A DNA stretch of 64,000 nucleotides from an uncultured Verrucomicrobiota bacterium (GCA_903907925.1 CAIVQB010000015.1:1203-65202); one strand, 5' to 3'; counted from the first letter of the stretch, positions 15,011 to 43,719 are shown. The notes: generated by a model from the letters alone, not told the origin. Numbers and translations are program-made.

Positions 15011-17470
15011 TCAGGCCAGGATCTTCAACCGATCCGGATCGACTGGCGTCCGGGCGTGGAACGTGGCCGGCTGCTGGGTTCCGTTGAGCAGGATTTCGTA
15101 GCGCCCGGTGGCGAGGTATTCCGGGGTGACGATTTCCGTGCCACGAATGTAGGCCATCGCCACGGAACGACCTGTGGTGTGGCCATACGCACCGCTGGTG
15201 GTGTAGCCCACTGCCACGCCGTTCCGGAACACCGGTTCACTTCCCCACAAGACCGGTTCAGGATTGTCCAGCGTCAGCAGGGCGAGGCGTTTCTTCAGTC
15301 CACGGGCCCGTTGTTCCAGCAACGCCTCGCGTCCGATGAATCCGCCCGGCTTATCCCATGACACCGCGAATCCCAATCCAGCTTCGAGCGGGGTTTCGTC
15401 CGGACTCAATTCCCCGCCAATCGCCCGGTAGCCCTTCTCCAATCGCAACGATTGAATCGAGTAGTGACCCGCATTGGCGACGCCCAGATCGCGACCGGTG
15501 GCCCAGAGCAAATCGTACACTGGAAGGGTTTGTTCGACCGGGATGTGAAGCTCCCAACCCAGCTCACCGACGTAGGTGAGCCGGATGGCCCGCACGGTGG
15601 TGGGTCCGATCGCGATCGAACGGGCGGTGCCGAACGGGAAGCCGGCGTTCGAAAGGTCGGCATCGGTCAATCGGGCCAGTAGCGTCCGCGAGTTCGGACC
15701 CATCACCCCGATCACGCCGTGGGAGTTGGTGACATCGGTGACGGTGACCCGCGCTCCGTCGGGAAGATTGCGTCGGATCCAGTCTCGATCCCGCACGCCC
15801 TGGGTGCTGCCGGTGATCAACAGGAAGGAGTCCGCGCCGGTGCGGACGACGGTGAGATCGCTTTCAATGCCGCCGCGGGAATTGAGCAACGCGGTGTAGA
15901 CCACGCGTTCCGCGGCGACATCCACGTTGTTGGCGCAAAGGCGTTGCAGAACGGTCAGCGCGTCGGGTCCCGACACCTGGAGTTTGGCGAACCCGGATTG
16001 GTCGAACAGGGCGACGGCCTCCCGCGCGGCGCGATGTTCCGCGGCGTGATTTTGGAACCAGTTCTGACGTCCGAAACTATACTCCATCACCGGCCGTGCC
16101 GCGTGTCCGGGTCGATCGCTGGTGAACCAATTGGGACGTTCCCAGCCGCCCTTCTGCCCGAAGCAGGCGCCGGCGGCGGCGAGCCGTTCGTGCAACGGCG
16201 ACAGACGCAAGCCGCGACCGGTCTCGGATTCGCGATTCGGCCAGGCCATTTGATAGTGGAGGCCGAGCACCTCCACCACGCGGGATCGCAGGAAGCTCCG
16301 ATTGTTGGCCCAACCTCCGAAACGCCGCACGTCCACGCTGGAAAGATCCAATGACGGCTGACCGTCGATCATCCATTCGGCGAGGTATTTTCCGGCACCG
16401 CCGGCGCTGGCGATCCCCACCGAATTGAATCCGCAGGCGACGAACAGGTTCCGCAGTTCGGGCGTTTCGCCCATTAGGAAGTTGTTGTCGGGCGTGAAAC
16501 TCTCCGGCCCGTTGACGAACTTCTGGAATCCGCTGGTTTCCAAGGCGGGGATGCGGTGCTTCCCGTGCCGCAATGGTTCGGCGAATTTCTCCCAATCGGG
16601 TTCGAGCAATTGAAATGAGAACCCGGGTGGAACCGCGTCCACCGCCCACGCCTTGGATTCCGCCTGGAATGCCCCGAGCATGACGGAATCGCCTTCGCCT
16701 CGGAAATAGAGGCAGAGATCGGGGTCGCGTCCGACGGGGAGTTCGTCGAAGGCGCCCGGGATGGGATTGCTGACCGCGTAGTGGTGCTCCACCGGATGCA
16801 GCGGCAGCGAGACCCCGCAGCGCAGACCGAGTTCGCGTGCCCACATGCCGCCAGTGAGGACCACGTATTCCGCTTCAATGGTTCCGGCAGAGGTTTCGAC
16901 CCCGGTGGCGCGGCTGTTGCGATGCTGGATTCCGGTGACGCGGATTCCCTCGACGATCGTCGCCCCACGGGAGCGCGCGCCCTGCGCGAGGGCGTAGGTG
17001 ACTTCTTTGGGAATGACCTTGCCGTCGTGCGGCAGCCAGGCTGCGCCGAGGATGTCATCGATCCGGAGCAGCGGCCATTTCGCCAGGGCTTCCTCGGCGG
17101 AGATGAGGCGCGATTCGATGCCGAACCATTCGGCCATAGCGAGAGTGCGACGAAGCTGGGTCATGCGCGCCTCCGACCGGCCGAGGATCAGGCTGCCGAC
17201 CTGTTTCCATCCGGTGGGATGACCGGTGGCGGCCTCGAGACCCTGGTACAACTCGGCGCTGTATTTGTTGATCGCGGTCAGGCTGGTGGAGGTGCGAAGC
17301 CGTCCGACCAGACCGGCCGCGTGCCAGGTGGTGCCCCCCGCGAGGAGATTCTGTTCGAGCACGACGACATCGCGCCAGCCGAGCAGGGTGAGATGGTAGG
17401 CCAGACTGCAGCCGGCAATGCCGCCGCCGATGATGACGACGCGGGTGGACGAGGGCAGGGAAGCGCTCAC
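15011..17470 (-). CDS. FAD-dependent oxidoreductase fused to a GcvT-like aminomethyltransferase domain (dimethylglycine/sarcosine dehydrogenase family)
   Basis: GTG start. DAO-type Rossmann motif (VVIIGGGIAGCSLAYHL), and a C-terminal folate-binding GcvT region (LTYVGELGWELHIP, LRLEKGY). 819 aa. Confidence 0.88.
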   Translation of the reverse strand: MSASLPSSTRVVIIGGGIAGCSLAYHLTLLGWRDVVVLEQNLLAGGTTWHAAGLVGRLRTSTSLTAINKYSAELYQGLEAATGHPTGWKQVGSLILGRSEARMTQLRRTLAMAEWFGIESRLISAEEALAKWPLLRIDDILGAAWLPHDGKVIPKEVTYALAQGARSRGATIVEGIRVTGIQHRNSRATGVETSAGTIEAEYVVLTGGMWARELGLRCGVSLPLHPVEHHYAVSNPIPGAFDELPVGRDPDLCLYFRGEGDSVMLGAFQAESKAWAVDAVPPGFSFQLLEPDWEKFAEPLRHGKHRIPALETSGFQKFVNGPESFTPDNNFLMGETPELRNLFVACGFNSVGIASAGGAGKYLAEWMIDGQPSLDLSSVDVRRFGGWANNRSFLRSRVVEVLGLHYQMAWPNRESETGRGLRLSPLHERLAAAGACFGQKGGWERPNWFTSDRPGHAARPVMEYSFGRQNWFQNHAAEHRAAREAVALFDQSGFAKLQVSGPDALTVLQRLCANNVDVAAERVVYTALLNSRGGIESDLTVVRTGADSFLLITGSTQGVRDRDWIRRNLPDGARVTVTDVTNSHGVIGVMGPNSRTLLARLTDADLSNAGFPFGTARSIAIGPTTVRAIRLTYVGELGWELHIPVEQTLPVYDLLWATGRDLGVANAGHYSIQSLRLEKGYRAIGGELSPDETPLEAGLGFAVSWDKPGGFIGREALLEQRARGLKKRLALLTLDNPEPVLWGSEPVFRNGVAVGYTTSGAYGHTTGRSVAMAYIRGTEIVTPEYLATGRYEILLNGTQQPATFHARTPVDPDRLKILA

Positions 17471-33840: not shown

Positions 33841-34650
33841 ATGCCGGCCGCGACCGGCCACGGTCGCCGGGTGCTGGCGCTGTTTCATGAGTTTCTCAAC
33901 CCCGCCGAGCTGCTGACCAATCCGGTCACCTGGCTCCTGATCGCATTCCAATTGTGGATGCTGGTCGACGCGATCCGGCGCGAGGAATGGATCTGGGCGG
34001 TCTGCATTTTCTTTTTCACCACGCTCAGCGCCCTCCTGTATTACTTCATGGTCTATCGCCAGCAGGGCCCGGCCGGTGGCGGAGGTTTGACGCGCGGGTT
34101 TGAATTTCCGGGGGCAAAGGAACGCCGTCGAATCCGTGAACTTCAGGGCCGGATCCATCATCTCGACAAGGCCCGTGACCATCTCGATCTTGCGGACATC
34201 TATTTCAGCCGGGGCCGGTTGAAGGACGCCGAGGCCAGTTACCGGGCCTCCCTCGAGCGCGACGGCGGGGATCTCGACGCCGTCGCCCATCTCGGCCAAT
34301 GCCTGCTCCGCCAGGCGCGGGCGGCAGAGGCCCGTCCCCTCCTCGAACGGGTGGTCCAAACCGACCCCCGACATGATTACGGTCACACCTTGATGGCCCT
34401 GGCGGAGACCCAGACCGCCCTCGGCGATTCGAACGGTGCTTTTGCGACCTGGCAGCGGGTGTTGGAAAACCACGGCTATGCGCGGGCCCGCGTCCAGTTC
34501 GCCGAACTTCTCATCCAGCGCGGCGATCGTCCGCGGGCGAAGGCCGAGTTGACCGAGCTGATCTCCGACGATCTTCATGCGCCTCGATTTCAACGGGGCC
34601 GGGACAAGACCTGGATCCGCCGGGCCCGGACCCTTCTCGCCCGGGTGTGA
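33841..34650 (+). CDS. PLDc_N-like two-helix membrane domain fused to TPR repeats
   Basis: WLLIAFQLWMLVDAIRREEWIWAVCIFFFTTLSALLYYFMVY matches the cardiolipin-synthase N-terminal (PLDc_N) pattern. The C-terminal portion has TPR-like repeats (ADIYFSRGRLKDAEASYRASLERD...). Confidence 0.7.
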   Translation: MPAATGHGRRVLALFHEFLNPAELLTNPVTWLLIAFQLWMLVDAIRREEWIWAVCIFFFTTLSALLYYFMVYRQQGPAGGGGLTRGFEFPGAKERRRIRELQGRIHHLDKARDHLDLADIYFSRGRLKDAEASYRASLERDGGDLDAVAHLGQCLLRQARAAEARPLLERVVQTDPRHDYGHTLMALAETQTALGDSNGAFATWQRVLENHGYARARVQFAELLIQRGDRPRAKAELTELISDDLHAPRFQRGRDKTWIRRARTLLARV

Positions 34651-35789
34651 ATTCCGTCCCTGATCCAGAGGACCAATGGTTGCCGACCGGTGAGTCGTAT
34701 TTCGCGTCGCTCACCACGGAACTTCAGCGTGCCTCCCTGAGCGTCCGGTTCGAGACCTATATTTTTGCACCGGACGCGACCGGACGACGGGTGCGCGACG
34801 TTCTGGTTTCCGTCGCCGAACGGGGAGTCCGGGTCAGCGTTTTGGTGGATGGACTCGGTGCGAACGAACTTCCCGATGATTTCTGGGATCCGCTACTGAA
34901 GGCCGGTGCCTCCGTCGTGGTGTTCAATCCGCTGGAGTTGCGGCGGCTGGGAATACGGGATCACCGCAAGCTGGTGGTGATCGACGAGCGCCTGGCGTGG
35001 GTCGGTGGCATCAACGTGGCCGATGAATACACCGGCGACGGGGTGACGCACGGCTGGGCCGACTGCGGATTCCTGCTGACCGGCGCCCCCGCCGGACAGT
35101 TGGCCCGCGAGTTCGATGCCATGCTGGCCGAGTGCGATGAGATCCAGCCCCAAACCGTGGTGGCCCGGCTGCGGCGGGGCATTCGTCCGCCGGCGCGTGA
35201 ATTGGGGCCCCATATTCAGTTGCTGGTCAGCGGTCCCGGACGAAAGGCGAACGCGTTCCAAAAACTGCTGCGGGAGGATGTGGCGGCGTCCGCCGCCGTC
35301 CAGTTTGTTGCGGCTTATTTTCTCCCGGGCTATCGGATGCGCCGTCTGTTGCGCGGCGTGGCCCAACGGGGTGTCCGGGTTCAGGTCCTCGTTCCGGGCC
35401 GGACCGATGTACCGCTGGCACGACGCGCGGCACGACATCTGTATTCCGGATTGCTCCGGTCGGGGGTGGAGCTCTGGGAGTATCAACCGCAGGTGTTGCA
35501 CGCGAAGCTGTTTCTCGCCAACAACGCCGTCTACGTCGGCTCCTCCAATCTCGACACCCGCAGCCTGCACATCAATTACGAGTTGATGCTGCGCCTGACC
35601 GATCCGCAGCAGGTCGCGGGTGGCCGTGAAATCGTTGCCGGATTGATGCGGCAATCAAAGCGGGTGGATCCCAGAACCTGGGCCGCCTCGCGGTCGTGGA
35701 TCGAGCGCTGGCGGGATCAATGGGCGTATTGGATCCTGTCGCGAGTGGATCCCTACGTGACCCGGTGGCTCGCACTGGGCCCCCGTTGA
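34647..35789 (+). CDS. phospholipase D / cardiolipin synthase family protein (ClsB-like, no TM domain)
   Basis: The GTG overlaps the upstream stop (GTGA). Two HKD motifs are present: HRKLVVIDERLAWVGGINVADEY and LHAKLFLANNAVYVGSSNLDTRS. Confidence 0.88.
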   Translation: MNSVPDPEDQWLPTGESYFASLTTELQRASLSVRFETYIFAPDATGRRVRDVLVSVAERGVRVSVLVDGLGANELPDDFWDPLLKAGASVVVFNPLELRRLGIRDHRKLVVIDERLAWVGGINVADEYTGDGVTHGWADCGFLLTGAPAGQLAREFDAMLAECDEIQPQTVVARLRRGIRPPARELGPHIQLLVSGPGRKANAFQKLLREDVAASAAVQFVAAYFLPGYRMRRLLRGVAQRGVRVQVLVPGRTDVPLARRAARHLYSGLLRSGVELWEYQPQVLHAKLFLANNAVYVGSSNLDTRSLHINYELMLRLTDPQQVAGGREIVAGLMRQSKRVDPRTWAASRSWIERWRDQWAYWILSRVDPYVTRWLALGPR

Positions 35790-37746: not shown

Positions 37747-37820
37747 GCGGGCGTAGCTCAATGGTAGAGTTCCAGTCTTCCAAACTGGCCATACGGGTTC
37801 GATTCCCGTCGCCCGCTCCA
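37747..37820 (+). tRNA. tRNA-Gly (anticodon UCC)
   Basis: The cloverleaf was read by hand. Acceptor stem gcgggcg/cgcccgc, D arm agctcaatggtagagt, anticodon stem-loop ccagt-cttccaa-actgg (UCC), T arm ggttcgattcc, and an encoded CCA end. Confidence 0.92.
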
Positions 37821-37975: not shown

Positions 37976-38191
37976 ATGGAAAAACCGTCCAAGACCCCGG
38001 ACGGGTCGTCCGAAAAACCTAAGGTGCGCACGTGGCGTCCGGAGGAGGACCGTCCGAGCCGATTCTTTCAGTGGATGGTTATTCTTCCCGACAAGTTCAC
38101 GTCCCGGAAGTTCAACCTCTACCAGCTCTTCCTGGTGGTGACGCTCGGGGTGCTGTTCTACGTCTTTGTTCTCGAACGGCTCGGTGATTGA
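37976..38191 (+). CDS. small tail-anchored membrane protein (hypothetical)
   Basis: 71-aa product with a charged N-terminus and a C-terminal TM helix (LYQLFLVVTLGVLFYVFVL). No motif. Confidence 0.35.
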   Translation: MEKPSKTPDGSSEKPKVRTWRPEEDRPSRFFQWMVILPDKFTSRKFNLYQLFLVVTLGVLFYVFVLERLGD

Positions 38192-38210
38192 GCGGTTGGG
38201 CAAAGATAAG

Positions 38211-38756
38211 ATGACGGAAGAACAGCACGTCGACGAGATTCGCGCTCTGAAGCGTGGAGCTCGCGAGATTACGCCAGCAACATTTGCGCGGATTGAGGCT
38301 GCGTTGGCGGCCTATCCTCTTTCTCCGCGCCTGTGGTGCATTCGAGGTGATTGCATCCAGCTCGGAGCGGAAGATTCGTCGTACGTTCTTCGCGATGCTT
38401 TGGCTTCCTATGAGCGCGCACTAAAGATCGATCCGAGGTTTGCGGAGGCCCACGAATCGGTTGGCTACTATTTTGATGTGATCGAAGAAGACCTCGCCAA
38501 GGCTGAGGTAGCGTTTGTCACCGCGATCGAGTTCGGTGGCGGATCGCACAGCTACTCCGGCCTCGCACGCGTGATGGCCGAGCGGGGCCGCGACCGAGAA
38601 GAGATCCTCGCTATGCTCGCCCGATGTTCCGAGCGGGATTCATCAGCGATCCGGGAGGCACGCCAAGAAACATTGCGCGGCGAGTGGGAGCGTCCGAAGA
38701 AAGAGCCCAACCAGGCGCAAGAGCCAACGGCCCCGAGCGGCCGTGGCTCATCTTGA
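38211..38756 (+). CDS. TPR-like repeat protein (hypothetical)
   Basis: ATG 38211. DALASYERALKIDPRFAEAHESVGYYF is a canonical TPR-type repeat. Codon usage is visibly more A/T-ending than in neighbouring genes. Confidence 0.5.
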   Translation: MTEEQHVDEIRALKRGAREITPATFARIEAALAAYPLSPRLWCIRGDCIQLGAEDSSYVLRDALASYERALKIDPRFAEAHESVGYYFDVIEEDLAKAEVAFVTAIEFGGGSHSYSGLARVMAERGRDREEILAMLARCSERDSSAIREARQETLRGEWERPKKEPNQAQEPTAPSGRGSS

Positions 38757-39000: not shown

Positions 39001-42000
39001 GTGGACTCCGCCGCCGCCGCCCCCACGGGCGCATCCAGTGTTTCCAGCGCCCCAACCGCCGTCCTCCCGCATAAACCCGCCGCGCTGTTGGAGCTCTATC
39101 GGGCGATGTTCACCGCCCGATCGGTGGATCAGGTCGAGATGGAGTTGGTGAACCGGGGGGAAGCCTTCTTTCATGTGGGGGGTGCCGGACACGAAGCCAG
39201 TGCGGTATTGGCGGCCTTCCTGACTGCGGACGACTGGCTCCACCTCCACTACCGGGACAAGGCTTTGATGTTGGCCCGCGGGTTGCCCATCGAGGAGTTT
39301 TTCCACAGCGCACTTTGCACCGCAGCCTCGCATTCCGCCGGGCGTCAGATGAGCGCCCACCTCAGCTCCCCGGCATTGAATCTCCTCAGCCTGGTCGGTC
39401 CGGTGGGGAACAATGCCCTGCAGGCGGTCGGCGTGGCGCAGGAGGTTGCGGATCGTCCTGGCAATCCCCTGGTGGTCTGCGCCGTGGGCGATGGAACCAG
39501 CCAGCAGGGGGAGTTTTTGGAAGCCGTCGCGGAAGCCGTCCGATCGCAGGCACCGGTGTTGTTCTGGATCGAGGACAACGGCCTCGCCATTTCGACCCAG
39601 ACCCGGGGCAATACCCTCTTCGACCTGCCCGACGGACCGGCGCGCGAGTATCTCGGTCTGCCCCTGCATCGTCTCGACGGCCGCGATCCCATCGCCTGCC
39701 TGAGGGCGGTGGCCCCGATCATCGAACGGATTCGGCGGAGTCGCGGTCCGGCCCTGGTGGTGTTTCAGGTCGACCGGTTGACCCACCACACCAATGCCGA
39801 TGACGAACGCGTCTACCGGGCGGAGGCCGATCGTCAGAGGGTTCGGAGGGTTTCGGATCCCGTGGAGGCCATTCGGAATGCCCTGCGTGCAGATGGCCTT
39901 TCGGAGGCTGAGTTGGCGGCCTTGGAATCGCGATGGACCGCGTCGGTTCGGTCGGCGGCCGAGCTGGCCCTGCGCGCACCCAATCCGGAGACCTGCCTGG
40001 ACGCGCGGGAACCGCTGCCGGCGTCGTGGAAAACCCGGACCGAGTATTCCGGCCAGCCGGGCGGAGAACGGTTTTCCATGTTGGAAGCCCTCCGCGAGGT
40101 GTTGCGGCTCCGGCTAGAAAACGATGCGCGCGTTTCCCTTTTTGGACAGGATCTCGAAGATCCCAAGGGCGATGTATTCGGCTTGACCCGCGGATTGTCC
40201 ACCGCGCATCCCGGTCGGGTCCGGAACTCGCCGCTCGCGGAGAGCACTATTGCAGGCGTTGGCGTCGGCCGCGCCCTGGCCGGTGGCCGGCCGGTGGCGT
40301 GCATCCAGTTCGCGGATTTTCTTCCGATCGCCTTCAACCAGATTGCCAGCGAGATGGGTTCGATGTTCTGGCGGACCTGCGGCGGTTGGAGGGCACCGGT
40401 GATCCTGATGGCACCGTGCGGCGGCTACCGGCCAGGACTCGGACCATTCCACGCACAGACCTTCGAATCGATCGTGGCCCACGTCCCCGGGGTGGATGTC
40501 GTGATGCCCAGCACCGCAGCCGATGCCGCCGGCTTGTTGAATGCCGCGTTTGAATCGGGTCGGCCCACGGTTTTTCTCTATCCCAAGGTCTGCTTGAACG
40601 ATCCGGCACTCGCGACGAGTCGCGACGTGGCGGACCACTGGGTCCGTCCCGGAGTGGCACGACGGGTTCGCACCGGGGACGACCTGACCCTGGTGACGTG
40701 GGGCGCGACCGTTCCCCTCGCGGTGCGGGCTGCCGATTTCCTGCAGGCGGCGGGTGTTTCGGTCGACCTGCTGGATTTGCGCAGCCTGAGCCCGTGGGAC
40801 GCGGAGGCGGTGACCGCCAGTGCCGAGCGCACCGGGCGCCTGGTGGTGGTGCACGAGGACAATTTGACCTGCGGATTTGGTGCCGAGGTGGTGGCGACAG
40901 TGGCGGAGCGTTCTCGAAAACCAGTTCGATCACGACGGGTCACCCGGCCGGACACCTATGTTCCGTGCAATTATGTGAACCAGTTGGAGGTTTTGCCCGG
41001 AATCCGGCGCATTCTCGAAGCGGCCGCCGAGTTGTGTGACTTGGAGCTGGGATGGGAAGCCCAACCATTGGCCACCGCGGGCGTGCATGTTCTGGAAGCG
41101 GTGGGATCCAGTCCCGCCGACCAGACCGTGGCGGTCGTCGAGTGGAAGGTTTCGGAAGGACAGGAGATCGAGGCCGGGGCTTTGCTGGCCGACTGCGAGG
41201 CGGACAAGGCGACGTTTGAGCTGCGAGCCCCGGTGGCGGGTTTTATTCGAGATTTGCGTCCCTCGGACGAAAAGGTGCCGGTCGGGACGCCTCTGGCCCG
41301 GATCTTCACGCGAACCTCGGAGGTGGCCTTTCCCCGACGGATTCCGGTGGAACCGATTCCGCGGATCGGCAAACGGGCCAATTCCGCACGGGTTGCGGTG
41401 GCCCAAACTGCGGGCGAAACCATCCGGGATGGTCGTTCGGTGGTGGGGATTGCGACGGTGGTGGGAGTGCCCGCCGGCCGCGAGGTGACCAACGCCGAGC
41501 TGATCCAGCGCTTTCCCGGTCGTTCGGTGGCCGATATTTTTCAACGCACCGGCATCGAATCGCGCCGGCTTCTCGCACCCGGGGAATCAGTGGTCACACT
41601 GGCCGCCGCGGCCGCGCGCGGTGCGCTGCGGGAGTCCGGGCTGATGGCCTCCGATCTTGATGCCATTTTCGTGAGCACCAGTTCCCCGGTTTCGCTGAGT
41701 CCCAGTCTGGCGTGCCTGTTGCATCACGAGCTGGCGAAGGATGGTCCGCTGAAGGATCTGCCCGCGGTCGATCTGCTGGCGGCCTGCACCGGGTATTTGT
41801 ACGCGCTCCAGTCGGCCTTTGATTTCTGCCAGTCGAAACCGGATGCGCGAATCCTGGTGGTCACCGCCGAGGCGATGAGCACCTACACCGATCCCAACGA
41901 CTTCGACACGGCAATCGTCTTCGCCGACGCCGCGACGGCCACACTTGTGGCGGGACCGGCGTCGGCCGGCTTCATGGCTTCGCGGGCCTTCCTGCACCGG

Positions 42001-42402
42001 CCGGTGCTGAGCGCAAGGGGTGAGGATGGCACCATTTTGAATCACGGACGCCGCGAGCGGCCGAGCGTCAACATGGACGGTCTGAAGGTGTTTCCGATGG
42101 CGGTCCGGCAGTTGATCGCGCTGATGAAGCAGGCCTGCGAAGAGTGCCAGGTCCCGATGCAGGAATTGGAGTACATCATTCCCCATCAGGCCAACGGCCG
42201 GATTCTGGATGCCGTCGACCAACGGCTTCGTTTGCCCCGTGGCCGGCTGATCAACCGGGTTCGCCACAGCGGCAACACCAGCAGCAGCAGCATTCCGCTG
42301 GTGTTGGCCCAGTTGCTGTCGGAAAAACCCGTCGGCCGGGCCGGTCTGTGCGCCTTCGGGGGCGGATTCACCTTCGGCGCCGCCGTGCTGGAGTTTTCCT
42401 GA
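39001..42402 (+). CDS. fusion protein: 2-oxoacid dehydrogenase E1 alpha + E1 beta + lipoyl-attachment domain + FabH-type 3-oxoacyl-ACP synthase III
   Basis: GTG start and one uninterrupted 1133-codon frame. E1 alpha (~39070-40020) has the TPP motif GDGTSQQGEFLEA..LFWIEDNGLAIS. E1 beta (~40065-41040) has NSPLAESTIAGVGVGRAL, the FADFL region, and the C-terminal LRSLSPWD. The lipoyl domain (~41080-41310) has CEADKATFELRAPVAGFI, with Lys codon at 41206. The KAS III domain (~41440-42399) has the Cys-His-Asn triad (LLAACTGYLYAL with Cys codon at 41785, IPHQANGRIL, SGNTSSSSIP). Confidence 0.85.
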   Translation: MDSAAAAPTGASSVSSAPTAVLPHKPAALLELYRAMFTARSVDQVEMELVNRGEAFFHVGGAGHEASAVLAAFLTADDWLHLHYRDKALMLARGLPIEEFFHSALCTAASHSAGRQMSAHLSSPALNLLSLVGPVGNNALQAVGVAQEVADRPGNPLVVCAVGDGTSQQGEFLEAVAEAVRSQAPVLFWIEDNGLAISTQTRGNTLFDLPDGPAREYLGLPLHRLDGRDPIACLRAVAPIIERIRRSRGPALVVFQVDRLTHHTNADDERVYRAEADRQRVRRVSDPVEAIRNALRADGLSEAELAALESRWTASVRSAAELALRAPNPETCLDAREPLPASWKTRTEYSGQPGGERFSMLEALREVLRLRLENDARVSLFGQDLEDPKGDVFGLTRGLSTAHPGRVRNSPLAESTIAGVGVGRALAGGRPVACIQFADFLPIAFNQIASEMGSMFWRTCGGWRAPVILMAPCGGYRPGLGPFHAQTFESIVAHVPGVDVVMPSTAADAAGLLNAAFESGRPTVFLYPKVCLNDPALATSRDVADHWVRPGVARRVRTGDDLTLVTWGATVPLAVRAADFLQAAGVSVDLLDLRSLSPWDAEAVTASAERTGRLVVVHEDNLTCGFGAEVVATVAERSRKPVRSRRVTRPDTYVPCNYVNQLEVLPGIRRILEAAAELCDLELGWEAQPLATAGVHVLEAVGSSPADQTVAVVEWKVSEGQEIEAGALLADCEADKATFELRAPVAGFIRDLRPSDEKVPVGTPLARIFTRTSEVAFPRRIPVEPIPRIGKRANSARVAVAQTAGETIRDGRSVVGIATVVGVPAGREVTNAELIQRFPGRSVADIFQRTGIESRRLLAPGESVVTLAAAAARGALRESGLMASDLDAIFVSTSSPVSLSPSLACLLHHELAKDGPLKDLPAVDLLAACTGYLYALQSAFDFCQSKPDARILVVTAEAMSTYTDPNDFDTAIVFADAATATLVAGPASAGFMASRAFLHRPVLSARGEDGTILNHGRRERPSVNMDGLKVFPMAVRQLIALMKQACEECQVPMQELEYIIPHQANGRILDAVDQRLRLPRGRLINRVRHSGNTSSSSIPLVLAQLLSEKPVGRAGLCAFGGGFTFGAAVLEFS

Positions 42403-42480
42403 CGTTTGGAGCCTCGAACGGGGCACCCGGAGGTCGCTTGCTACGAGGGGGTGCGATCCTCTACGGTCACTTCCCAATTT

Positions 42481-43719
42481 ATGGCGTTGCTGAATGACAA
42501 TTATCTCAAACTCAAGGCGGGGTATCTGTTTCCCGAGATTGGCCGGCGGGTCAAGGCGTTCACCGAGGCCCATCCGGAGGCTGCCGCCCGACTGATCCGC
42601 TGCGGGATAGGCGATGTCACCGAGCCACTCCCCCCGGTGGTGGTGGCGGCGTTGCACCGCGCGGTCGATGAAATGGCCCAACGTTCGACCTTTCGCGGTT
42701 ATGGTCCGGAACAAGGCTACGATTTCCTGCGGTCCGCCATCGCCCAAAACGATTATCGGAGCCAGGGAATGGACATCGCGGACGATGAGATTTTCGTCAG
42801 CGACGGTTCCAAATGCGATTGCGGGGCGATCCTGGACATCCTCGGCGACCGCAACCGCATTGCGATTTCCGATCCGGTGTATCCGGTCTACGTTGATACC
42901 AACGTGATGGTGGGACATACCGGGTCTGCCGACGTTTCCGGTGCGTACGAGGGCCTGGTGTACCTGCCGTGCACGCCGCAGAACGGGTTCATCCCCGAAC
43001 CGCCGAAGGAAGCGGTCGACGTGATCTACCTGTGTTCCCCCAACAACCCCACCGGGGCGGCGGCCACCCGTCCGCAGTTGGAGGCCTGGGTCGCCTATGC
43101 GCTCCGGCATGGTTCAATCCTGCTGTTCGATGCGGCTTACGAGGCCTACATCACCCAGGCGGGGGTGCCGCATTCCATCTATGAGATTCCGGGAGCGCGC
43201 GAGTGCGCCATCGAGTTTCGTAGTTTCTCGAAAAACGGCGGATTCACCGGTACCCGTTGCGCGTTCACCGTGGTGCCGAAGAGTCTCAAAGCCCGCACCG
43301 GCACCGGCGAATCCATGGCGTTGCACCCGCTGTGGTCGCGCCGGATGACCACCAAGTTCAACGGCGTTCCCTACATCGTCCAACGGGCCGCCGAAGCGCT
43401 GTATTCGACGGAGGGCAGGGCCCAGGTCCGCGGGTTGATCGAACACTATCTCGGAAACGCGGCGGTGTTGGTGGCCGGGGCGAAGGCGGCCGGGCTGACG
43501 GTCTTTGGCGGGGTCAATGCCCCGTATATATGGGTCGCGACACCGGCCGGCAACACCAGTTGGCAGGCGTTCGACCGGATTCTGTCGGAGGCCCACGTGG
43601 TGATCACGCCGGGAAGCGGATTCGGATCGAAGGGTGAAGGGTACTTCCGGGTCAGTGCGTTCAACTCGAGGGCCAATGCCGAAGAAGTGGCGCGCAGACT
43701 CCAGGGCCTGCGCTGGTAA
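42481..43719 (+). CDS. dapL: LL-diaminopimelate aminotransferase
   Basis: ATG 42481. The N-terminus ([20 protein letters not shown]) is characteristic of DapL. PLP lysine region [15 protein letters not shown]. Confidence 0.9.

Follow-up and report, generated by a model that had tools for sequence, protein, structure and literature searches.

We analyzed a stretch of DNA of 64,000 nucleotides (the window) from an uncultured Verrucomicrobiota bacterium (GCA_903907925.1, CAIVQB010000015.1:1203-65202). The gene under study lies at 39001..42402 on the plus strand, starts with GTG and ends with TGA. An earlier note on this DNA had described a single frame of 1133 codons without a stop, encoding in order the E1 alpha and E1 beta parts of a 2-oxoacid dehydrogenase, a lipoyl domain and a FabH-type beta-ketoacyl-ACP synthase III (KAS III; ACP, acyl carrier protein). 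The open reading frame (ORF), of 1133 amino acids, was recovered as described. The hidden Markov model scan that the note had proposed matched E1_dh, Transket_pyr, Transketolase_C, Biotin_lipoyl and ACP_syn_III/ACP_syn_III_C in this order, so that six Pfam domains above their gathering scores bear out the four-part arrangement.

All modules are on the plus strand. The E1 alpha module (39097..39993) was matched by E1_dh over aa 33-331 (131 bits, cut-off 22), and the E1 beta module (40075..40986) by Transket_pyr over aa 359-529 (86.5 bits, cut-off 27) and by Transketolase_C over aa 551-662 (102 bits, cut-off 25.9). Biotin_lipoyl covered aa 710-768 (45 bits, cut-off 22.1). ACP_syn_III (aa 924-991, 57.6 bits) and ACP_syn_III_C (aa 1046-1131, 74.7 bits) marked the condensing domain, for which Pfam and the alignments gave aa 814-1133 (41440..42399). 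The motifs named in the note were in place: GDG (163-165) and EDNG (191-194) in E1 alpha, CEADKATFEL with Lys736 in the lipoyl domain, and AACTGY (Cys929), PHQAN (His1062) and GNTSSSS (Asn1092) in KAS III. Neither the 2-oxoacid_dh E2 core (PF00198) nor E3_binding (PF02817) was matched in the protein by Pfam at E<=0.01, which confirmed that the E2 catalytic core is missing from the chain.

Residue conservation was read from two sets, 56 members at 37-76% identity and, for the FabH positions, 83 full-length members. An AlphaFold2 model built on the 56-member family alignment had a mean predicted local distance difference test score (pLDDT) of 90.9 and a predicted template-modeling score (pTM) of 0.73, with every module folded. 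Residues 1-23 were predicted to be disordered and are not conserved. Beyond them, the only disorder was found at residues 794-810 (pLDDT <50), inside the flexible linker between the lipoyl and KAS III domains (aa 770-813, 41308..41439), as delimited by the model and the alignment. This linker abounds in Ala, Pro, Val, Arg and Ser, resembling the inter-domain linkers of E2, and Pfam detected no peripheral-subunit-binding domain in it. The segment aa 770-822 varied in length from 35 to 73 residues across the family. The lipoyl domain itself (approximately aa 681-769, 41041..41307; Pfam and model) was an eight-strand barrel. Its best PDB matches were E2p lipoyl domains, which puts it nearer to lipoyl than to biotinyl domains, and Lys736 (41206-41208) was aligned to their lipoyl-lysine. 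This residue, in the context EADKATFEL, is the predicted attachment site; it was Lys in 55/56 family members.

The thiamine diphosphate (ThDP)/Mg motif of the E1 part, G163-D164-G165...N193 (39487-39579), was intact. Gly163 and Asn193 were invariant (56/56), and position 164 was Asp or Glu in all 56 sequences. His263 (39787-39789) aligned with the second His of the GHHS motif in the human branched-chain 2-oxoacid dehydrogenase (BCKDH), which we take to be His291-alpha. His484 (40450-40452) aligned with the conserved active-site His of E1 beta, presumably His146-beta' in the human enzyme. Both were found in 56/56 members. The title of the PDB entry 1ols names the two BCKDH histidines for the reductive acylation of lipoamide. 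The best structural-sequence match of E1 alpha was the alpha subunit of the Thermus thermophilus branched-chain 2-oxoacid dehydrogenase (144 bits); human BCKDH alpha (103 bits) and the alpha subunit of Geobacillus pyruvate dehydrogenase (PDH; 90 bits) were further matches. Several E1 beta structures matched the beta part about equally. The equivalog scores in NCBIfam stayed under the cut-off for alpha (best TIGR03181, 166.5 vs 411) and beta (best NF008854, 185 vs 454). The two parts share one frame, unlike the separate subunits by which heterotetrameric E1 is defined; fused E1 alpha-beta proteins without further domains also exist.

In the KAS III domain, the catalytic codons are Cys929 (41785-41787), His1062 (42184-42186) and Asn1092 (42274-42276). 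The triad was conserved in the 56-member alignment (Cys 56/56, His 55/56, Asn 56/56) and in the full-length set, where the equivalents of Cys112, His244 and Asn274 in E. coli FabH numbering were kept in 83/83, 82/83 and 83/83 members. The equivalent of the oxyanion-hole Gly305 was present in 83/83. Arg1067 (42199-42201) corresponds to E. coli Arg249, the established ACP-docking arginine; this position was Arg in 79 and Lys in 3 of the 83. The domain matched genuine FabHs, foremost those of Aquifex, B. subtilis (FabHA), V. cholerae and N. meningitidis, and gave a strong match to E. coli as well. Its identity to solved FabHs, estimated from printed alignments, was 35-40%. The NCBIfam FabH models scored under their cut-offs (NF006829, 237.7 vs 249; TIGR00747, 210.5 vs 292.1).

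The coenzyme A (CoA) site was compared position by position. In E. coli FabH, the adenine of CoA is stacked between Trp32 and Arg151 and hydrogen-bonded to Thr28, and the phosphopantetheine is held by Arg36, Asn209 and Asn246 in YpFabH numbering (PMC4606726). At the Thr28, Trp32 and Arg151 positions, the fusion protein has Arg, Asp (Asp845, 41533-41535) and Phe (Phe968, 41902-41904). Among the 83 members, the Trp32 position was Asp in 55, Glu in 12 and Trp in 2, and the Arg151 position was Phe in 64, Pro in 8 and Arg in none. The Thr28 position was Arg in 54 and Trp in 11, and Thr was in no listed residue class. The Gly160 and Gly162 positions of the GDGAGA loop, which adjoins Arg151, were Ala in 74 and Thr in 75 members. 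The position of Phe87, the gate of the acyl pocket in E. coli FabH, was Ser or Thr in 71/83. In contrast, Trp32 and Arg151 were both present in 7/7 canonical FabHs from four phyla (E. coli, V. cholerae, N. meningitidis, B. subtilis, S. aureus, A. aeolicus and T. thermophilus). A homolog search with canonical FabH listed only Bacillus FabH sequences of at least 89% identity and was not used as a control. All 18 public KAS III-containing fragments of the fusion that we examined lacked Trp at position 32 and Arg at position 151, where these were covered. Judged by these residues, the family has lost the nucleotide-recognition part of the acyl-CoA site and retained the parts for condensation and ACP binding.

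The fusion is a real, ancient and large bacterial family, apparently unstudied. The 120 listed homologs (55-100% identity; NCBI, ENA, JGI and Logan assemblies) had all six Pfam domains, and nearly all were 1058-1207 aa long. In an exhaustive HMMER search of 1.84 billion cluster representatives, at least 37 clusters at 50% identity, some as low as 38% identical to the query, aligned with it in a single stretch (about residues 30-1131). When one genome was scanned for each species, at least 577 candidate loci emerged. The best 80 of these were essentially full-length matches, except for two that were cut by contig ends. These 80 came from Verrucomicrobiota, Planctomycetota (Pirellulaceae, Blastopirellula, Phycisphaerae), Kiritimatiellia/Pontiella, Spirochaetaceae/Alkalispirochaeta, Thermoleophilia and Sumerlaeota, and the cultured carriers among them were Tautonia sp. 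JC769, Rhizobium leucaenae USDA 9039, R. rhizogenes OV677 and Rhizobium sp. BR 362. The closest named relatives of the window gene came from Verrucomicrobiota metagenome-assembled genomes. The PLSDB plasmids held no full-length copy. The continuity of the frame is established indirectly, since homologs from independent assemblies and isolate genomes have the same full-length chain. Current database names for members are 'transketolase', '2-oxoisovalerate dehydrogenase E1 component', 'thiamine pyrophosphate-dependent enzyme', 'beta-ketoacyl-ACP synthase 3' and 'hypothetical protein'.

The relatives outside the family indicate what KAS III has replaced. Proteins of 986-1073 aa matched only query residues ~30-780 and carried the PF00198 E2 core after the lipoyl domain. 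Single-chain examples of this E1 alpha-E1 beta-lipoyl-E2 core order are P0310, P0325, P0328, P0342, P0299, P0317 and P0332. P0318 (1227 aa) adds a C-terminal ACP (PP-binding) to it. In a neighbor-joining tree of the E1 region, drawn without bootstrap, the KAS III fusions formed essentially one clade, with the E2 core fusions and the free E1 alpha-beta proteins neighboring. Because these relatives carry E1 alpha, E1 beta, lipoyl domain and E2 core in one chain, KAS III takes up the slot of the E2 catalytic core.

A genuine-looking two-gene form also occurs. In a Logan assembly (run SRR7539721), a gene for a 639-aa E1 alpha-beta protein is followed after 45 nt by a lipoyl-KAS III gene. The lipoyl-KAS III protein P0235 (437 aa) was found on 7 contigs, and the gene pair was displayed in one place; three more 90%-identity clusters from other sources had the same layout at ~437-442 aa. 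The lipoyl domain of the split form shares a gene with KAS III, just as that of E2 shares a chain with the catalytic core. We considered whether 'E1b-lipoyl-KAS III' and 'KAS III only' proteins were evolutionary intermediates and, the L004-type two-gene form excepted, rejected this on tblastn and gene maps. Frameshifts lay behind the apparent splits at loci L002, L085 and L086. At L001:4714-9263 (ena:ERZ26165376 ctg355200), an insertion sequence (IS) element with a DDE_Tnp_1 transposase sits inside the E1 beta-lipoyl linker and yields a 717-aa E1 alpha-beta ORF and a 420-aa lipoyl-KAS III ORF. Among the entries P0121-P0240, many that are labeled '2-oxoisovalerate dehydrogenase E1 component' and hold KAS III alone, or E1 beta, lipoyl domain and KAS III alone, are fusion fragments produced by frameshifts or contig ends.

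The surroundings of the gene were then surveyed. The window has ~62% G+C and genes typical of the Planctomycetes-Verrucomicrobia-Chlamydiae (PVC) group, such as DUF1549/1552/1553, planctomycete cytochrome c and exosortase. Upstream of the fusion, on the plus strand, lie a tRNA-Gly(TCC) gene (37747..37820) and a gene for a small tetratricopeptide-repeat (TPR) protein (38166..38756); a ClsB-like cardiolipin synthase is encoded at 34647..35789. Downstream, dapL for LL-diaminopimelate aminotransferase (42406..43719, plus strand; TIGR03542, 559 bits) begins 4 nt after the fusion stop codon and is probably co-transcribed with it; this adjacency was not conserved in other loci. An 819-aa fusion of a FAD-dependent oxidoreductase and a GcvT-type aminomethyltransferase (15011..17470, minus strand) resembles dimethylglycine or sarcosine dehydrogenase. 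We rejected it as a candidate dihydrolipoamide dehydrogenase (E3), though it is the sole flavoprotein of the window with a weak Pyr_redox match.

The note had stated that no E2 core or E3 gene is present in the 64 kb, and this was upheld. Pfam found no E2, E3, ACP or second KAS III among the 25 ORFs of at least 380 aa in the window (a set filtered by G+C at third codon positions, GC3), and the tblastn queries, namely an E2 core, E. coli Lpd, AcpP and LipB, had no match in the window outside the fusion gene. That E2 and E3 are absent means little, because the fusion hardly ever has partner genes in its vicinity in any genome: within 10 kb, among 85 sources, an ACP was found in 1, Lpd (E3) in 3, an E2 core in 1, and LipB and a second KAS III in 0/85 each. 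Clustering of 656 flanking ORFs from 84 loci gave no family-wide neighbor. The best cluster reached 12/84 loci; its one annotated member was an aconitase in a spirochaete locus. Since conserved neighbors and nearby partner genes are lacking, the fusion looks like a self-contained module that relies on the housekeeping ACP, E3 and lipoylation enzymes.

Some loci have a different setting. In R. leucaenae USDA 9039 (L075:8721-9722), the fusion is preceded on its own strand, at a distance of 279 nt, by a gene of the fatty-acid-hydroxylase family (PF04116). An unannotated BLAST cluster that may include this gene is also represented in Rhizobium sp. BR 362 and at three Verrucomicrobia loci. At L086:3905-12669 (ena:ERZ25039529 contig_139632), the fusion, here fragmented by a frameshift, is directly followed by AMP-binding, acyl-CoA dehydrogenase, PP-binding and condensation-domain genes, and a cytochrome P450 gene lies just upstream. 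Relatives of the E1 alpha-beta part adjoin a nonribosomal peptide synthetase (NRPS) on a Streptomyces plasmid. In some genomes, the fusion may feed a lipopeptide or NRPS-type pathway.

With the above results in hand, we lean toward reading the fusion as a primer synthase, complete in itself, that serves type II fatty-acid (or fatty-acid-like) synthesis and would convert a 2-oxoacid directly to a 3-oxoacyl-ACP. The fused E1 alpha-beta part would decarboxylate the 2-oxoacid with ThDP/Mg2+, most likely as an (alpha-beta)2 dimer of two chains. The hydroxyalkyl-ThDP would reductively acylate the lipoyl group on Lys736, with assistance from His263 and His484. The acyl-dihydrolipoyl arm would then enter the remodeled mouth of the tunnel in KAS III, which would hang on a flexible tether of 35-73 residues, and the acyl group would pass to Cys929 by thioester exchange. 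In chemical terms, this exchange matches both the E2 reaction and the loading step of FabH. Malonyl-ACP would dock at Arg1067, be decarboxylated with His1062 and Asn1092, and condense with the acyl-enzyme; the 3-oxoacyl-ACP product would enter the elongation cycle. Housekeeping E3 would re-oxidize the dihydrolipoyl arm in trans. E1 is established as an (alpha-beta)2 assembly and FabH as a dimer, and a homodimer of the fusion would serve both. The residues predicted to act in decarboxylation, lipoyl acylation, Cys loading and condensation are all conserved family-wide. We infer lipoyl acylation, direct lipoyl-to-Cys transfer, condensation, recycling by E3 and independence from CoA. The earlier note had proposed that the acyl group passes from the lipoyl arm to the KAS III cysteine without CoA. 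None of the computational tests able to refute this reading did so. Three lines support it and make us favor a direct relay: KAS III stands in the slot of the E2 core, the two-gene form encodes the lipoyl domain together with KAS III and not with E1, and the contacts to the adenine of CoA are replaced, with the triad, the oxyanion hole and the ACP-docking arginine retained.

The note had also offered a branched-chain 2-oxoacid as an example of the substrate. The proximity of E1 alpha to the Thermus branched-chain E1 speaks for it, but the fusion also occurs in Planctomycetota and Rhizobium, and the assignment is only a guess. In Verrucomicrobiota, the substrate is probably a branched-chain 2-oxoacid, because E1 alpha is similar to branched-chain E1s, the residue at the Phe87 position is small, and the Verrucomicrobia studied are rich in iso/anteiso fatty acids. 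PMC9328018 puts branched chains at 92% of the acyl chains of Akkermansia phosphatidylethanolamine, irrespective of carriage of the fusion. Branched fatty acids are also given, again irrespective of carriage, for Methylacidiphilum.

Several points weigh against the proposed primer synthase or its substrate. No ketosynthase cysteine is known to us that takes its acyl group from a lipoyl arm. The chain has no E3-binding domain and E3 is not encoded nearby, which leaves the re-oxidation of the arm unaccounted for. In the model, the lipoyl barrel follows E1 beta almost without a linker. The pantetheine contacts are largely kept (Arg36 in 63/83, Asn247 in 77/83); their retention would be expected if the phosphopantetheine of ACP still enters, and it would also leave room for a weak use of CoA. 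The canonical FabH control is small (n=7) and was built from PDB alignments, with 1zow for S. aureus. E1 alpha also matches the PDH E1 (90 bits), and the nearest NCBIfam models are of the PDH type, all under their cut-off. Planctomycetota and Rhizobium, both with carriers of the fusion, are not known to be rich in branched fatty acids.

Other explanations were weighed against the same data. That the chain is an assembly chimera, a read-through of separate genes or a pseudogene has a negligible probability. Many database entries do resemble stand-alone 'E1b-lipoyl-KAS III' or 'KAS III only' proteins; these short entries, however, are frameshifted or IS-interrupted copies, mostly on contigs whose names resemble long-read assembler output. 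Hundreds of independent assemblies, and isolate genomes as well, contain the gene full-length in a single frame, and all catalytic residues are under clear constraint, so the full-length homologs, the 50% clusters, the genome loci and the residue conservation refute this explanation. It is also unlikely that the modules are only co-localized, with the acyl group going from the lipoyl arm, or from the lipoyl arms of a separate E2, to a free-standing E2 core, on to acyl-CoA and from there to KAS III, as in Bacillus or Staphylococcus. A cis lipoyl domain without an E2 core would be pointless in such a route, because E2 cores have their own lipoyl domains. The replacement of the adenine contacts is family-wide (Trp32 in 2/83, Arg151 in 0/83), the lipoyl domain accompanies KAS III in the split form, and an E2 core within 10 kb was found in just 1/85 sources. 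What can be said for this route is that Arg36 and Asn247 are mostly retained, that KAS III is clearly FabH-like at an estimated 35-40% identity, and that E2 and E3 genes may sit elsewhere in the genome, beyond the 64 kb.

The KAS III domain could instead be a transacylase, an E2 surrogate that moves the lipoyl-borne acyl group to the thiol of CoA or holo-ACP with no Claisen condensation. Its position in place of the E2 core would suit this role, as would the sister protein that ends in an ACP, and some KAS III-like proteins, such as DpsC and CerJ, are acyltransferases rather than condensing enzymes. We nevertheless regard it as very unlikely: the His244, Asn274 and Gly305 equivalents, which belong to malonyl decarboxylation and condensation, are kept in 82-83 of the 83 members, the ACP-docking arginine is conserved, and the best matches are bona fide FabHs, not homologs of the acyltransferase type. 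A further alternative leaves the mechanism as proposed and concerns physiology: the starter units would serve a specialized lipid or lipopeptide, at least where a canonical FabH is also present. This is plausible in some lineages. Rhizobium, a genus with a normal FabH, has isolates that carry the fusion, and R. leucaenae has the hydroxylase-family gene 279 nt upstream; the L086 copy adjoins AMP-binding, ACP and condensation-domain genes; and E1 alpha-beta relatives stand beside the NRPS on the Streptomyces plasmid. Most loci, the window included, have unrelated housekeeping neighbors and no conserved biosynthetic cluster, and the very broad distribution in the PVC group fits a core function there. 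Overall, this alternative is possible if rather improbable. To the broader form of the primer synthase proposal, namely that a lipoyl arm feeds a ketosynthase directly and that a widespread family thereby starts fatty-acid synthesis from 2-oxoacids without acyl-CoA or an E2 core and may in many PVC bacteria be the main or only KAS III, we assign an even chance.

The fusion was compared with the known systems that it resembles. With the BCKDH complex and FabH of Bacillus, Staphylococcus and Listeria, which prime iso/anteiso fatty acids, it shares the E1 fold, the ThDP motif, the histidines, the lipoyl arm, the KAS III fold, the Cys-His-Asn triad and the predicted net reaction from 2-oxoacid and malonyl-ACP to 3-oxoacyl-ACP. 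Unlike them, it is one chain without an E2 core, a peripheral-subunit-binding domain or an oligomeric E2 scaffold; it lacks the CoA-adenine site of FabH and is predicted to work without a free acyl-CoA intermediate. The succession of lipoyl domain, flexible Ala/Pro-rich linker and acyl-accepting domain is that of an E2 acyltransferase, and the lipoyl-KAS III protein of the two-gene form mimics an E2 subunit. However, the acceptor in the fusion is a thiolase-fold domain with a covalent Cys, whereas E2 has a CAT-fold core with a His/Asp general base and uses CoA. The E1 alpha-E1 beta-lipoyl-E2 core proteins have the N-terminal 770 residues in common with the fusion (35-40% identity) and lie in the neighboring clade of the E1 tree, but end in the PF00198 E2 core instead of KAS III; as far as we found, they are uncharacterized.

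A ThDP-to-lipoyl relay that feeds a carrier-protein assembly line is also known. QncN/QncL/QncM (quinocarcin) and SclQ1-4 (scleric acid) pass a ThDP-derived acyl group via a lipoyl arm to an ACP with no CoA thioester (PMC6335953). They differ from the fusion in the ketose phosphate donor, the C2 glycolyl unit, the E2-type transfer to ACP, the lack of a ketosynthase and the setting in secondary metabolism. P0318, with its terminal ACP, is an all-in-one version of the QncN/L/M-type ThDP-lipoyl-ACP relay; we found no description of this protein. The actinobacterial OdhA/KGD proteins are likewise fused 2-oxoacid dehydrogenase components and gave the best whole-chain structural match, at a TMq of only 0.46-0.47; they have a homodimeric-type E1o, an E2 core, no lipoyl domain, a succinyl-CoA product and no condensing enzyme. 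FabY and the malonyl-ACP decarboxylases MadA/MadB, alternative initiators of type II fatty-acid synthesis, replace or bypass the acyl-CoA-dependent FabH step (PMC8666670). Their folds and chemistry are unrelated to those of the fusion, and none uses a 2-oxoacid or a lipoyl arm.

Among solved PDB chains, fold and sequence searches found none that extends beyond one of the two halves, E1 or KAS III. No NCBIfam model names the fusion or is reached at its cut-off, and searches of the open-access full-text literature, including papers on Verrucomicrobia lipids, the Organicella genome and MadB, brought up no account of it. The statement of the earlier note that no characterized enzyme of this architecture was known thus holds for the open-access literature, PDB and NCBIfam. 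Each part is of a classical kind; neither their combination nor the predicted transfer from lipoyl arm to ketosynthase is described in these sources.

On the current view, type II fatty-acid synthesis starts from an acyl-CoA primer, used by FabH, or through one of a few bypasses, such as FabY and MadA/B, and 2-oxoacid dehydrogenase complexes always pass the acyl group to CoA via the E2 core. If the proposal is true, both rules would be broken: the lipoyl arm would load a ketosynthase, and the choice of primer would be set by the E1 site, not by the acyl-CoA pool. As there are carriers in culture (Tautonia sp. JC769, R. leucaenae USDA 9039 and R. rhizogenes OV677), the hypothesis can be tested directly. 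The mis-annotations 'transketolase' and '2-oxoisovalerate dehydrogenase E1 component' would be corrected, and a compact one-gene module would be at hand with which 2-oxoacids could be turned into branched or unusual fatty acids by engineering. The fusion would represent a new mode of primer selection and a new class of acceptor for lipoyl-borne acyl groups, and it would explain lipid priming in such large and little-studied groups as Verrucomicrobiota, Planctomycetota, Kiritimatiellia and some spirochaetes.

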